A DNA stretch of 64,000 nt from an uncultured Acidobacteriota bacterium (GTDB lineage Bacteria; Acidobacteriota; Thermoanaerobaculia; Multivoradales; SZUA-115), in contig CAWDVR010000002.1 of the NCBI GenBank assembly GCA_963805975.1, forward strand, positions 928,001-992,000, read 5' to 3'. The notes under the pieces were generated by a model. It did no database searches. It had not been told where the DNA came from and was given only the letters and a program-made list of their open reading frames with translations. How positions within the stretch are numbered: position 1 is the first letter of the stretch; every line of letters begins with the position of its first letter. A program made the position numbers and the translations under genes. This document shows positions 24,509 through 41,031 of the stretch, in pieces.

Positions 24509-25831
24509 TCAGAAAGCGCGGGTCAACAACAGCAGGAGCGCCGGGATCGCGACCACCCCCGCCGCCGCCCAGGCGAGCCGGCGATCCTGCCGGCGCGCGC
24601 GGGCGAGGGCGTCCGCGTACGGGATGGTGGTGTGCGAGATCATGGTGTAGAGCGGCATCCAAGCGGCCGGGAAGAGGCGCGACAGCAGCAGGTCGAGCCG
24701 CTTGCGGGCGCGGAAGAAGGGCGAGCTCACCCGCTGCCGCAGCTCCAGGAAGTTCTCCTTCGACAGCTCGGCCAGGGTGTCGGTGTGCACCTTGCGCCGC
24801 CGCTGGTAGTCGGCCAGCGCTTCGCCGCGCCGGCTGCCGTGCTCCTCCAGGCAGGCGACGAGCGTGGTGCAGTCCTCGAACGCCGAGTTCATGCCCTGGC
24901 CGTAGAACGGGTAGACGGCGTGGCAGGCGTCTCCCACCAGCACCAGCCAGTCGCCCAGGTGCCAGGGCGAGGTGCGGGTGGTGACGAGCGAGCCTTCCGG
25001 GTGCCGCCGCCACTGCTCGAGATAGTCGGGCACCAGGGCCGGCACGTCCGGGAAGTAGCGGCGGAAGAAGGCCGCGATCTCCTCGGCCGAACGGAGCTCG
25101 GCAAAGCTGTCGGGGCCCTCGAAGGGCAGGAACAGGGTCGCGGTGTGCGAGCCGTCGAGATTGGGGTGGGTGACGATCAGGCAGTGGCCCCGCGGCCAGA
25201 CGTGGAGGGCCGTGAGCTCGATCGCCGAGGAGCCATCGGGCTTCGCCGGCACGGTCAGCTCCTTGTAGCCCCACTCGAGGTACTCCTGGCTGTAGTTGGC
25301 GCGCTCGCCGCGCTGCATCTCCTGGCGCAGGCGCGAGAACGCGCCGTCGGCGCCGATCAGCAGCTCCGCCGCCACGGCGAGCGTCCGCCCGCCGGCCTCG
25401 TCGGCCACCGCCAGCGTCCGCGCCTCCTTGTCCAGGGCGAGGCAGCGATGGCGGAAGTGGAAGCGCGCGCCACGACCCTCGGCGCGGTCGATCAGGGCGC
25501 GGTTGAGCTCGTTGCGGTCGACCGAGTGCAGCACCTCCTCGCCGCGGTTGCCGTAGGCCTGGAAGCTGGTGCCACCGCCCTCGGCGTGGATCACCCGGCC
25601 GCGCATGGTCACGGCACGGCCCAGGATCTGCTCTTTCATCCCCACCATGGCGAGCGCCGCCAAGCCCCGCTTGGAGAGCCCGAGGTTGATCGAGCGGCCC
25701 TCGGCCCCCAGGCGCAGGCGCGGGTCGTCGCGGCGCTCGTAGACGTCGACCTCGAAGCCGCGCTCGGCAAAGGCGGCGGCCAAGAGCGACCCGGTCAGGC
25801 CGGCGCCCGCGATGGCGATGCCGTGGCTCAA
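24509..25831 (-). CDS. kmo: Kynurenine 3-monooxygenase-like FAD monooxygenase with C-terminal hydrophobic anchor
   Basis: GAGLTG, GRSINLGLS, GADG, LHVWPRG, GDACHAVYPFYGQGMN, PLYTM; TTG start with GGAGG SD. Confidence 0.85.
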   Translation of the reverse strand: MSHGIAIAGAGLTGSLLAAAFAERGFEVDVYERRDDPRLRLGAEGRSINLGLSKRGLAALAMVGMKEQILGRAVTMRGRVIHAEGGGTSFQAYGNRGEEVLHSVDRNELNRALIDRAEGRGARFHFRHRCLALDKEARTLAVADEAGGRTLAVAAELLIGADGAFSRLRQEMQRGERANYSQEYLEWGYKELTVPAKPDGSSAIELTALHVWPRGHCLIVTHPNLDGSHTATLFLPFEGPDSFAELRSAEEIAAFFRRYFPDVPALVPDYLEQWRRHPEGSLVTTRTSPWHLGDWLVLVGDACHAVYPFYGQGMNSAFEDCTTLVACLEEHGSRRGEALADYQRRRKVHTDTLAELSKENFLELRQRVSSPFFRARKRLDLLLSRLFPAAWMPLYTMISHTTIPYADALARARRQDRRLAWAAAGVVAIPALLLLLTRAF

Positions 25832-25875
25832 ACGAGCCTCCGCGGGCTCAAACGAGCCTCCGCGGGCTCAAACGA
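25825..25875. repeat. 2.5 copies of a 20-bp tandem repeat at the DUF6875/kmo junction
   Basis: GGCTCAAACGAGCCTCCGCG x2 + GGCTCAAACGA. Confidence 0.95.
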
Positions 25876-26701
25876 CCCCCCGCGCCAGCTCCAGGGCCTG
25901 GGCGAGGAGCTCGGAGTGGCGCAGCTCGATCTCGGCGTTGACCAGGGACTCGAGCGCGATCTGGAAGTTGCGCCCGCTGGTCTCGCTGCCGAAGCGGCGC
26001 AGGTAGGAGCGCAGGAAGCTCGCCCGCGTGGCGGGGGCGTCGAGCGAGCGCGACAGGAAGGGCAGGTCGGACTCCACCATGTGGCGGATGGCCACCATCG
26101 GGATCGGGCTGGCGAGGGGCCGGAAGTCGTCGCTGCGCAGGCCCGGCGTCTCGTTGCCGGGATAGAACTCGCCGATCATCAGCCCGGCCTGGACGAAGTG
26201 GGGCTTGAGCTCCTGCTTCACGTTCTCGATCAGCTCCGCCGCCGTCTCCGCGTCGAGGTCGGGGAACACGGTGACGATCGACTTGTTCATGCACAGCGGC
26301 TCTTCCCGCGGCTCGAGCGCGAGGAAGGTCTCGCGATAGGCGGTGAGGACGGCGAGCAGCTCCTCGCGGCTCGGGCTGGCGCCGGGCACCAGGGCGAGCC
26401 ACACGGTGCCGAGCTTGAGCGAGGGCCCGACGAACGGGCAGACGGCGCCGCTCCTCCCGAGATCGGCGTGCGGCTGCGCGAGGAAGCTCCGCAGCCAGGC
26501 GACGACCGCGGCGAGCGCCGGGTAGCGGTCGGCCTGGGTCTCGACCTCGGTGGCGAGGAAGAGGCGGCCGGTTTCGTCGATCGTCATCGCCGCCGGGGCA
26601 GTCGCGCCATGGCGGCCGGTGACCGGACAGACGGCGGCGAACTTCGGATGGGCACCGGAGGGTTCGCGGCAGGAGGCGTCGGGGGTCGGGGTCGTGTTCA
26701 T
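25868..26701 (-). CDS. DUF6875-like protein (GRSGAVCPF motif), function unknown
   Basis: WLRSFLAQPHADLGRSGAVCPFV, GLMIGEFYP, F.PL.SP.P..AIRHM..D pattern recognised from memory as DUF6875; needs HMM confirmation. Confidence 0.7.
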   Translation of the reverse strand: MNTTPTPDASCREPSGAHPKFAAVCPVTGRHGATAPAAMTIDETGRLFLATEVETQADRYPALAAVVAWLRSFLAQPHADLGRSGAVCPFVGPSLKLGTVWLALVPGASPSREELLAVLTAYRETFLALEPREEPLCMNKSIVTVFPDLDAETAAELIENVKQELKPHFVQAGLMIGEFYPGNETPGLRSDDFRPLASPIPMVAIRHMVESDLPFLSRSLDAPATRASFLRSYLRRFGSETSGRNFQIALESLVNAEIELRHSELLAQALELARGVV

Positions 26702-39000: not shown

Positions 39001-39478
39001 GGTCGAAGGGCTTCTCCGCCTCCTCGCGCAGGCGCCGCTCGAGCTCGGCCGCGGCGTCGGCCCGGCCGGCCAGATCTTCCCCGCCGGCCAGATCTTCGAG
39101 GTGCAGGCCGATCGCGAGCTGCTCGGCGATCCTCTGCACCGGTCCTTCCGCCGTGCGCGCGAAGGTGGTGCGCAGCACCTCGTGGTGGGCCAGGAGGTCG
39201 TCCAGCGCCGCCTCGAGCGCGGCGGCGTCGAGCGGGCCCCGGAGCCGTACCACCTGCGACACGTTGTAGGTCGCGCTCTCGGGCGTGATCTGGTCGATCA
39301 GCCACAGCCGCCGCTGGGCGAGGGACAGGGGGATGCGCTCCGGGTCGCGCGGCTGGCGGCCGATCCTGGGCCTCGCCGGCGCCTTCTGGCTGCCGAGCTG
39401 CTTCAGGAGAAGCGCGCGCTTCTCGGGCGAGAGGCCGGCGATCCGCTGCTCGAAGGTGCTCATGGACGATTCGCTCAT
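36056..39478 (-). CDS. NRPS module 1: C-A(Ala)-T; frameshifted in the A domain
   Basis: HHIVVDGWS; pieces [31 protein letters not shown] across frames; LGGHSL; ATGA overlap with upstream gene. Confidence 0.85.
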
Positions 39479-41031
39479 GCCGGCCCCGGAAGCGGCGCCG
39501 GCCCGGCAGCCGGCCCCAGGGCCGATTCGGAGCCTGGTTCGAAGGTGGCGAGCGGCGTGCGGCGGAGGATCTCCCGCACCGCGAGCACCAGGCCGAGGAC
39601 CTGGCCGGCGAGCGACAGCAGCACCCTGCCCACCGGGCCCGGCAAAGGCATGCCGCTGAACGGCAGCACGGTGGATAGGACGATCCAGGCGAGCCCCACC
39701 CCCACGTAGGTCCGCGGCCAGGCCGGCAGCTCGGGCACGAGGAGGAGGAGGAGCAACAAGGGACCGAAGAGGGCGTAAGCGTCCGGCTCGAAGGGGCTGC
39801 GCAGGGCGGCCAGCGTGAGGAGCGCGAGCCAGATGCGCGCCTGGCGCAGCCGCGTCGCTCCCGCCACCCGCCGCGCCGCCACGACCGCCAGCCCGACCAG
39901 GAGCAGCGTGTAGACAGTCCCCACCAGCTTGGGCGCCGCCGGCCCGGCCTCGGGCAGGCCCAGGAGCGGCAGCTTCCACACCAGGCCGGGGATGGTGCCG
40001 TTGATCGCCGCCACCGCCCACAGATCCTCGTTGCCCAGCCAGGCGAAGGCCTCGCCGGAGAGCATCCGCGGCAGCTCGAAGGTCAGGAACGAAGAGAACG
40101 GCGCCCAGCTCAGCCAGGCCACGGCCAGGGCGGCATACAGGGCCATGAAGGCCGCCGTCCAGGCCACGGCCCGAAAACGCCGCCGGGCGGCGAGCTCGAT
40201 CAGCAACAGTCCGGGAAACATCTTGCTCGCGGTGGTCAGGGCGAGGAGCGCGGCGCCGGTGGCGAGGCGTCCGCTCGCCAGGTAGGTCATCGCCACCAGG
40301 GAAAGGGCGAAGGTGACGAGCTGGAAGTTACCGATCTGGAGGGTGAGCACCACGGGGGTCGCGGCGAGGAGGGCCGGGAGGGTCAGCGCGACCACCCAGC
40401 CGGCCCGGCCCCCGACCCAGCGGGCCACCAGCAACACCGACGTGGCGAGCAGAGTGAGATCGAGCGCGAACCAGAGCGCCCGCCAGAACAGGAAGTCGCC
40501 GCCCAGGGCCTGCGCCAGCCGCGGCAGCAGCAGGAAGGTCGGCGGGTAGGGGTACTCGTCGACCCGGAAGCGGCCGATGGTGCCCACGTAGTGACCGGGG
40601 TCGTAGAGATTTTCGGCGGCGGCCTGGGACAGCTCGCCCGCCTTCCAGTAGGCGGAGAAGCAGGAGTGGCCGATGTAGAAGTCGTCGAACCACAGCGCCG
40701 AGTGGCCGGCCTGGGAGGGATCCGCCATGAACTCGGCGAGACCGGTGAGCCGCACCACCGCCAACAGTCCGACGGCGGTCCACACCGCGAGCAGCGCCCG
40801 GCGCCCGGCGAAGATCTCGCGGAGGGCGTGAGGCAGGCGGTGAGCGAGAGCCGGGACGGCGGCGAGCGCGCCCAGCAACGCGGCGAGCGCCGCGGCGGCG
40901 AAGGGCAGGCCGGCAGCGGCCAGCAGCACGGCGGCCACCGGCACCGCGAGCAGCAGGCCGATGCCCGCCACGACCCACCGCGAATCGAGCCCTTGCCGCA
41001 GCTCTTGCTTTTTTTCTTCTTCCACTTCCAT
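39475..41031 (-). CDS. GT87/DUF2029-like polytopic membrane glycosyltransferase (GT-C)
   Basis: More than 10 TM helices; NLYDP, YPYPPTFLLL, LQIGNF, K.FP motifs typical of GT87. Confidence 0.75.
   Translation of the reverse strand: MEVEEEKKQELRQGLDSRWVVAGIGLLLAVPVAAVLLAAAGLPFAAAALAALLGALAAVPALAHRLPHALREIFAGRRALLAVWTAVGLLAVVRLTGLAEFMADPSQAGHSALWFDDFYIGHSCFSAYWKAGELSQAAAENLYDPGHYVGTIGRFRVDEYPYPPTFLLLPRLAQALGGDFLFWRALWFALDLTLLATSVLLVARWVGGRAGWVVALTLPALLAATPVVLTLQIGNFQLVTFALSLVAMTYLASGRLATGAALLALTTASKMFPGLLLIELAARRRFRAVAWTAAFMALYAALAVAWLSWAPFSSFLTFELPRMLSGEAFAWLGNEDLWAVAAINGTIPGLVWKLPLLGLPEAGPAAPKLVGTVYTLLLVGLAVVAARRVAGATRLRQARIWLALLTLAALRSPFEPDAYALFGPLLLLLLLVPELPAWPRTYVGVGLAWIVLSTVLPFSGMPLPGPVGRVLLSLAGQVLGLVLAVREILRRTPLATFEPGSESALGPAAGPAPLPGPA

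Follow-up and report, generated by a model that had tools for sequence, protein, structure and literature searches.

What peptide is made by three single-module non-ribosomal peptide synthetases (NRPSs) encoded beside two predicted oxygenases, and at which end of it would an oxidised tryptophan sit? The question is raised by positions 24,509 to 41,031 of a 64,000-nt stretch of contig CAWDVR010000002.1 (assembly GCA_963805975.1, an uncultured Acidobacteriota bacterium); the whole stretch is here called the window, and its source genome G000. A sequence-only reading had proposed an X-Ala-Gly-Y aldehyde or alcohol, possibly with an oxidised tryptophan or kynurenine as its starter X and glycosylated at the membrane. 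Comparing the locus with its relatives, we arrive at a model of the opposite polarity, to which we assign a rough probability of 0.55: an Ala-Gly-X peptide in which X would be a doubly oxidised, Trp-derived C-terminal residue, released reductively and then glycosylated. The model turns on the adenylation (A) domain of the last module, A3, the only A domain that tracks the two oxygenases from genome to genome.

The genes are as follows, with condensation (C), thiolation (T) and reductase (R) domains abbreviated; G001 is a same-genus genome that served as the reference for intact NRPS genes.

39475..41031, minus strand: GT87 membrane glycosyltransferase (GT-C fold), 518 aa; Pfam GT87, 57 bits
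36056..39478, minus strand: NRPS1, docking helix-C-A(Ala type)-T-docking helix; by Pfam, frame broken in the A domain, code read via G001
32653..36059, minus strand: NRPS2, docking helix-C-A(Gly type)-T-docking helix; by Pfam, frame broken, code read via G001
28079..32656, minus strand: NRPS3, docking helix-C-A(DAGDMGHVCK)-T-R, 1525 aa, intact; Pfam Condensation, AMP-binding, PP-binding and NAD_binding_4
26727..28082, minus strand: MFS exporter (Mef/H+ antiporter-like), 451 aa; Pfam MFS_1
25868..26701, minus strand: DUF6875, that is cytochrome P422 (thiolate-heme tryptophan hydroxylase family), 277 aa; Pfam PF21780, 202.5 bits
24509..25831, minus strand: KMO-like flavin monooxygenase with a hydrophobic C-terminal tail, 440 aa; Pfam FAD_binding_3
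22192..24471, minus strand: DUF5916/CBM9 protein with a signal-peptide-like start, directly after the KMO-like gene; Pfam
25825..25884, no strand: 20-bp unit in three copies across the P422 stop and KMO-like start; sequence comparison

Open reading frame (ORF) calling and Pfam bear out the seven co-oriented genes from GT87 to KMO that had been proposed, in that order, with their C-A-T, C-A-T and C-A-T-R modules and all four stop-start overlaps (ATGA at GT87/NRPS1; GTGA at NRPS1/2, NRPS2/3 and NRPS3/MFS). Three things had been missed, namely the DUF5916 gene as an eighth member, some 49 frameshifts in NRPS1 and NRPS2, and the A3 code, which can be read.

The terminal A domain and the two oxygenases

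In the intact G001 orthologues, alignment gives DLFNNALTYK for A1 and DILQLGLVWK for A2, in agreement with the codes read by hand before; we take these to be Ala and Gly codes. The code of A3 is DAGDMGHVCK, found in 30 of 78 loci (L019-L096), with Cys for Val at position 330 in G001. Of the best 120 homologues of the A3 pocket region, 119 have DAGDMGHVCK unchanged; an R motif is present in 111 and a thioesterase (TE) motif in 4, and the organisms named as sources include Lysobacter, Rugamonas, Duganella, Micromonospora, Nonomuraea, Streptosporangium and Planobispora. A tblastn search of plasmids with the A3 core gave no match, and a single-sequence AlphaFold model of A3 (pLDDT 36) was discarded.

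What stands before this invariant module varies. Assuming that the upstream codes of the homologues are correctly assigned to amino acids, A3 is preceded by Ala-Gly in G000, by another code and Gly in Lysobacter, and by a Val/Leu-type starter in Rugamonas, while in G004 and G008 a polyketide synthase (PKS) module replaces the Gly module ahead of it. The family holds one-, three-, four- and five-module lines as well as PKS hybrids, so that the three-module system is one version and not the rule it had been taken for. Beside these, A3 modules occur on unrelated lines: in L157 and L158 (G046 and G047) the module is followed by a divergent C domain, a Gln-type module and a different R domain, and in L160-L162 (G049) it is the starter of a five-module, TE-ended NRPS.

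We surveyed P422 loci as the best 80 of at least 599 pattern matches in GTDB genomes, with neighbours within 10 kb. An MFS gene lies beside 42 of them, a KMO-like gene beside 40 and an R domain beside 32, and the loci come from Lysobacter, Rugamonas, Janthinobacterium, other Acidobacteriota and one Anaerolineae metagenome-assembled genome (MAG). The combination of P422, KMO-like enzyme, MFS exporter and DAGDMGHVCK module recurs in Acidobacteriota, Lysobacter and Rugamonas, and the module itself also in actinomycetes. The co-occurrence expected of a real system was found: among 41 relatives the 5 with P422 are also the 5 with the A3 orthologue, and the two likewise coincide in 6 of 100 Lysobacteraceae (one genome unscored), the orthologues being scored by pocket region, since the whole of A3 at E 1e-150 was too strict to show them. 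GT87 and DUF5916 accompany the same set of three single-module NRPSs in L. enzymogenes, G044 and G045, and a four-module line in Rugamonas.

Linkage can be broken without loss of the partnership. G004 has GT87-MFS-P422-KMO-DUF5916 on one contig and the NRPS with A3 on another; taking it for a cassette without an NRPS was rejected, the NRPS being in trans. Among five further genomes without A3 at the locus, the module is in trans in G046, G047 and G048 and further upstream, as a starter, in G049; G050 gave no match. At the other extreme L170, one of eight close metagenome loci, consists of the KMO-like gene, P422, a single C-A3-T-R module, an MFS gene and an O-methyltransferase. Because A3 tracks P422 and the KMO-like gene, persists when unlinked and is the sole module in L170, the simplest reading is that A3 loads the product of both oxygenases. 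As it is A3 alone that tracks them, the oxidised-Trp unit is likely the C-terminal residue and not the starter that the sequence-only reading had made it; starters proper, where homologues have them, are ordinary A-T modules.

The cluster is one copy of a real and widespread family that reaches from Lysobacter to Micromonospora. We found no description of the gene combination or of the A3 code in the open literature, a search to which subscription papers and MIBiG were external. The family appears to be uncharacterised and its building block is probably new, each single part having precedent; that the family has been characterised somewhere already is rather unlikely.

Chain start, reductive release and a basic-residue alternative

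The R domain of NRPS3 is closest to that of MxaA (PDB 4u7w, E 3e-95), carries the NAD(P)H-binding TGATGFLG motif and YxxxK, and scores 328.7 against the TIGR01746 cut-off of 213, as a C-A-T-R reductase should; the reductive release proposed earlier is supported. Over most of the protein's length the best equivalog is MxcG, at 768.9 bits far below the cut-off of 2300.

At the other end, ORF calling and Pfam showed no starter A-T, ligase or TE at the locus, as had been stated. NRPS1 begins with a docking helix like those of NRPS2 and NRPS3, likewise in L. enzymogenes, G044 and G045, and its C domain, C1, groups with internal C domains (FastTree, 56 rows, no labelled references). No acyl or aryl donor recurs among the neighbours of 39 KMO-type loci, in 8 of which a phosphopantetheinyl transferase (PPTase) does, and where a homologue does have a true starter it is an ordinary A-T module. 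A free N-terminus is favoured by the missing donor, the internal type of C1 and these A-T starters taken together, and NRPS1 probably starts the chain itself, possibly with repeated Ala; acylation of the chain start in trans is also conceivable.

The A3 pocket has a small residue, Gly, at 239 and Asp at 278, which resembles Lys/Orn codes. With the MxcG match, and with a docking helix on NRPS1 that has no partner at the locus, this speaks for a scheme in which A3 loads Lys, Orn or Arg to give a protease-inhibitor-like peptide aldehyde, while the Trp unit joins at another point, either on C1 as the starter or after release, at the aldehyde or imine. We consider this unlikely, as neither an aryl ligase nor a carrier recurs beside the 39 loci, C1 lies among internal C domains, L170 has only one module, G049 still keeps P422 and the KMO-like gene with A3 as the starter of a TE-ended line, and the KMO-like enzyme retains its anchors for a free amino acid.

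Two predicted tryptophan-oxidising enzymes

DUF6875 was renamed cytochrome P422 in a preprint (bioRxiv 10.64898/2025.12.11.692455), the available text of which shows N1-, C6- and C7-hydroxylation of free Trp, reports that the Mc170 Q132A mutant retained 43% activity, and describes a cyanobacterial and Pseudomonadota NRPS-linked subclade (II-b) that hydroxylates N1 and whose peptides it calls undiscovered. According to the same source and the accessible part of PMC13307353, some P422s accept N-acetyl-Trp or other indoles; the latter pairs one member with a methyltransferase. With this family assignment, the earlier idea of an oxidised Trp-derived unit gains support.

The cluster P422 has the heme-ligand motif RxGxVCP (as RSGAVCP) and the motifs SBR1, Rx(M/L)x3Dx2F, and SBR3, MxGxF. 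It departs from SBR2, Dx2(Q/H)x3K, with E-x2-K-x3-K, where the same-genus protein has E-x2-Q-x3-K. A PDB sequence search with it gave no match. In a quick tree of 82 rows one branch with a support of 100 divides 42 KMO-linked P422s from 37 mostly cyanobacterial ones, three rows being unlabelled, and the closest relatives within the survey of the best 80 of at least 599 matches are labelled Thermoanaerobaculia. By analogy with the preprint's subclade the enzyme is predicted to hydroxylate free L-Trp, most likely at N1, with C6 and C7 possible.

Elsewhere in the P422 family, 19 mostly Nostoc proteins (L066-L093) form a clade with no NRPS or KMO match within the fetched flanks, the neighbours in L068 being unrelated genes. 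P422 also occurs in one frame with, or beside, a YbaK deacylase domain (L011:17795-19438 in G002; L069, L073, L079), and the cyanobacterial cases adjoin a stand-alone A-T of code DPWAFGVIDK.

The KMO-like protein has the group A flavoprotein fold: it aligns over its full length with P. fluorescens-type KMO structures (PDB 5NAK/6FOX family, E 7e-91), and an ESM Atlas search returned only KMO-named clusters. The equivalents of R84, Y98, N369 and Y404 (numbering from the structure alignment), which we take to hold the amino-acid end of the KMO substrate, are kept in all 43 cluster-linked rows. The rest of the pocket has changed: A56G, I224V, L226H, F233H, M373L and F409H are common to 42 of the 43 rows (the exception is G002) and set them apart from two housekeeping KMOs, so that the hydrophobic aniline pocket of KMO (A56, I224, L226, M373) reads G/V/H/L. 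L226H is also present in two actinomycete-like loci, from which F233H is absent. The cluster enzymes sit on a long branch apart from housekeeping KMOs in a quick and provisional tree, and L. enzymogenes and G045 additionally carry a separate canonical KMO. The kept anchors and altered pocket suggest that the substrate is a free aromatic amino acid of greater size and polarity than kynurenine.

A second KMO-like gene with a different pocket signature lies in another cluster of the source genome (G000:C5:280000-291000; L123, L124, L102), along with a T-C-A-T NRPS, a small carrier-like ORF, a PALP enzyme, an acyl-CoA dehydrogenase, a stand-alone A domain, an aminotransferase, an ABC transporter and a B12 radical SAM protein. 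Genes related to this C5 copy are present in G001 and G008.

These enzymes bear on the timing of oxidation. The top NCBIfam match of the KMO-like protein is VioC (190.9 bits against the NF053548 cut-off of 760), and some P422s, as said, take substituted Trp or other indoles; A3 might accordingly load Trp or singly hydroxylated Trp, with one or both oxygenases acting on the carrier-bound or released peptide, for instance by VioC-like oxindole formation or by a ring rearrangement after release. This too seems improbable, given that both enzymes keep carboxylate-binding residues of no use for a reduced peptide end, and that the upstream peptide varies widely whereas the KMO-like pocket does not.

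Frameshifts in NRPS1 and NRPS2

Of the three NRPSs only NRPS3 is intact as assembled; NRPS1 and NRPS2 are not open frames, whereas their G001 orthologues are each a single one. Relative to these, the NRPS1 A domain has 19 short insertions (37500-36560) and NRPS2 has 30 (34760-33100), about 49 lesions in total, nearly all of +1 or +2, packed into 2.6 kb at a density of about 19 per kb. Outside the broken segments there are 0–2.7 insertions per kb in five C/A segments and none in two T ends. The broken segments contain no stop codons, and 15–18% of their codons are amino-acid-changed against G001, compared with 16–21% in intact C/A segments. Genome-wide, 9 of the 61 A-like domains in G000 are frameshifted, seven of them besides NRPS1 and NRPS2 (for example C1:1041282, C5:198056 and C5:204533). 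Dense +1/+2 insertions are typical of uncorrected long-read error, and those in NRPS1 and NRPS2 are probably errors of sequencing or assembly. With 9 of 61 A-like domains affected, sequencing error may also explain other genes that look split in G000.

That the family is as described but G000 holds a decaying copy, its NRPS1 and NRPS2 truly inactivated, is very unlikely: the 49 or so frameshifts, the unusual SBR2 Lys of P422 and the 20-bp triplication at the P422/KMO-like junction would fit decay, but the lesions are almost all small insertions in 2.6 kb with neither stops nor a rise in amino-acid change, seven further A-like domains of the same assembly share the defect, and, as weak evidence, one low-depth 270-nt contig of a near-identical soil strain spans two insertion sites with 2 gaps. 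Two soil read sets, of which small shares were taken, gave mostly foreign NRPS pieces. Confinement of the frameshifts to near-identical repeats was considered and is weak at best, as paralogues there reach only 72–82% identity and the intact A3 also has such paralogues.

Probable capping and export, and surrounding genes

The acidic DE-x-x-Y motif of GT87 is kept in all 8 cluster orthologues compared, and the 6 of 100 Lysobacteraceae that have P422 and A3 are also those with GT87. In 42 cassette genomes, GT87 is present in 32 and an O-methyltransferase in 2, never both; four metagenome loci also have the O-methyltransferase. Polyprenyl-phosphosugars are the donors with which GT-C enzymes glycosylate exported peptides (PMC4635501, whose available text does not use the name GT87). 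The oxidised-Trp unit is likely capped by a GT87 sugar or an O-methyl group, as the gene content suggests, and the proposal of membrane glycosylation gains support.

The DUF5916 gene (22192-24471) belongs to the cluster as its eighth, co-conserved member: it follows the KMO-like gene or GT87 in G001, G004, G008, L. enzymogenes, Rugamonas, G044 and G045. Its product is probably an outer-membrane barrel. In G008 a small Cys/Ser/Thr-rich ORF after DUF5916 (L009:7839-8150), with no Pfam or NCBIfam match, looks to us like a lanthipeptide precursor.

A sugar operon in Lysobacter, G045 and Rugamonas (L108:8918-20273, L118:4434-15995, L111) ends in or beside GT87 and DUF5916. Aldolase II, GT2 and kinase genes are present in all three, a nucleotidyltransferase, GtrA and HAD genes in some, along with a phosphodiesterase-like ORF and a membrane protein; the operon may make an unusual polyprenyl-linked sugar. 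Candidates for the polyprenyl-phosphosugar synthase are the in-cluster GT2s of L. enzymogenes (with GtrA), Rugamonas and G045; in G000 there are only distant GT2s, of about 35%, elsewhere in the genome.

All three NRPS T domains keep the GGxS serine. An MbtH motif and a PPTase motif occur once each elsewhere in G000, and its TDO gene lies outside the cluster at C2:1135408. The 20-bp triplication repeats the stop codon of P422 together with the ribosome-binding site and start of the KMO-like gene, and is not present as such in G001; scans of 21000-27000 found no promoters or terminators. Two large Vps10/BNR-repeat genes (16103-21010 and 41156-44431) flank the cluster, as they do in G001, and a 258-aa ORF at 45379-46155 has a signal-peptide-like start, a Cys-rich N-terminal part and no Pfam match.

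Proposed pathway and its weak points

In the pathway that we propose, P422 would hydroxylate free L-Trp, most likely at N1 and possibly at C6 or C7. The free aromatic amino acid that the KMO-like enzyme would then oxidise is probably either the P422 product itself or a hydroxykynurenine derived from that product by the housekeeping TDO. A3 would load the resulting X, with NRPS1 loading Ala and NRPS2 Gly, the chain being handed on through the docking helices. The R domain would release an aldehyde or alcohol, which may cyclise. Lastly, the MFS protein would export the product, the new hydroxyl would receive a sugar from GT87, with a polyprenyl-phosphate compound as donor, and DUF5916 may carry the product across the outer membrane. 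Genes, domains, motifs, codes and co-occurrence were observed; every substrate and product in this scheme is a prediction.

Several points weigh against the Ala-Gly-X model. Besides the basic-looking A3 pocket, the chain start on NRPS1 is unexplained, and SBR2 is canonical in 117 of 120 P422 homologues, the Lys for Gln being found only in the G000 copy (1 of 120). The N1 assignment comes from the published description of a subclade. G050, an incomplete MAG, has P422 and the KMO-like gene but no A3 match. The E-value cut for the set of 41 relatives was chosen after a paralogue score was known, and in some genomes not all candidates were scored. Physical linkage in related genomes, which are not independent, accounts for much of the co-occurrence; the unlinked cases are the more telling. 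As to capping, 8 of the 42 cassette genomes have neither GT87 nor the O-methyltransferase, GT87 homologues of 36–42% identity occur in 4 of 36 cassette-free relatives (that of G013 stands alone), and close orthologues of the Lysobacter sugar operon were not found in G000.

More tentatively, and with the odds against it, we speculate that P422, the re-pocketed KMO and the dedicated A domain form a portable three-gene kit for an amino acid unseen in any peptide, such as an N-hydroxy-oxindole (a cyclic hydroxamate) or a dihydroxy-indole Trp. Placed at the C-terminus of interchangeable carrier peptides in at least four phyla, it would serve as a reactive aldehyde warhead or as a metal-binding head, masked by a periplasmic sugar or a methyl group.

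Relation to known systems

The P422 preprint, in the text available, predicts widespread undiscovered N1-hydroxy-Trp peptides, and the family described here is a concrete, conserved place to look for them. It offers A3 as an A domain that probably takes an oxidised-Trp residue, and brings with it a KMO clade whose reaction is probably new, as well as a switch between GT-C and O-methyltransferase. The full cluster is present in the cultured L. enzymogenes Lj46 and Rugamonas rubra ATCC 43154, and the key module in Micromonospora echinospora and Planobispora rosea. With many hosts in culture the product can be sought directly, and A-domain specificity and the KMO-like reaction become accessible by knockouts and enzyme assays.

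The C-A-T-R terminal module is shared with MxcG (myxochelin), MxaA (myxalamid) and peptide-aldehyde NRPSs, with the R domain closest to the MxaA structure. Unlike MxcG and MxaA, the cluster has no catechol or polyketide supply at the locus, its A code is unique, and its scores fall below the equivalog cut-offs. With KMO and VioC, the KMO-like enzyme shares full-length homology and the amino-acid anchors; it differs in its conserved, enlarged polar pocket, its separate branch and a score far below the VioC cut-off. A cryptic NRPS of L. enzymogenes itself, that of the led (Le-pyrrolopyrazine) cluster, has, we believe, six modules. The family cluster in strain Lj46 has three and lies at 5.47 of 6.36 Mb, while led lies mid-chromosome in strain C3 (PMC9410377, from its accessible part); this comparison is not a direct test.

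Oxidation of Trp to feed an NRPS is known from the actinomycin, tasikamide, mycemycin and pyrrolobenzodiazepine pathways. The available preprint text names AcmE, a Tsk8 homologue and MymH as P422 C7-hydroxylases (bioRxiv 10.64898/2025.12.11.692455). In contrast to the actinomycin and pyrrolobenzodiazepine type, the cluster seems to use its unit as an alpha-amino acid, and no TDO, kynureninase or aryl-acid starter was found at the locus by Pfam or recurred among the neighbours of the 39 loci. Pyrrolobenzodiazepine pathways also use R release.

With P422 subclade II-b the cluster protein shares PF21780, the heme Cys motif, SBR1 and SBR3, and the proteins closest to it are NRPS-linked ones of Pseudomonadota and cyanobacteria, in line with the preprint's available text, which makes it a candidate member. 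It departs in SBR2, as noted above, and the pairing with a KMO-like partner, a dedicated A domain, an R domain and GT87 is not described in that text (bioRxiv 10.64898/2025.12.11.692455).

Rhabdopeptide/xenortide (RXP) NRPSs (PMC6195595, from the part available) likewise comprise two or three single-module proteins, the first included with an N-terminal docking element, and allow non-linear or repeated use. The cluster differs from them in having no methyltransferase (MT) domains, in reductive instead of amine-releasing C-terminal release, and in docking elements that look helical and not like a beta-hairpin; iteration here would be by analogy. Finally, the GT-C glycosylation by Ram29, MppH/I, Dbv20 and Tcp15 (PMC4635501, as far as its available text goes) shares with the cluster an integral-membrane GT-C enzyme, an acidic loop motif and an exporter within an NRPS cluster. 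What sets the present family apart is its Gram-negative hosts, a very small predicted acceptor and a GT87 that is interchangeable with an O-methyltransferase.

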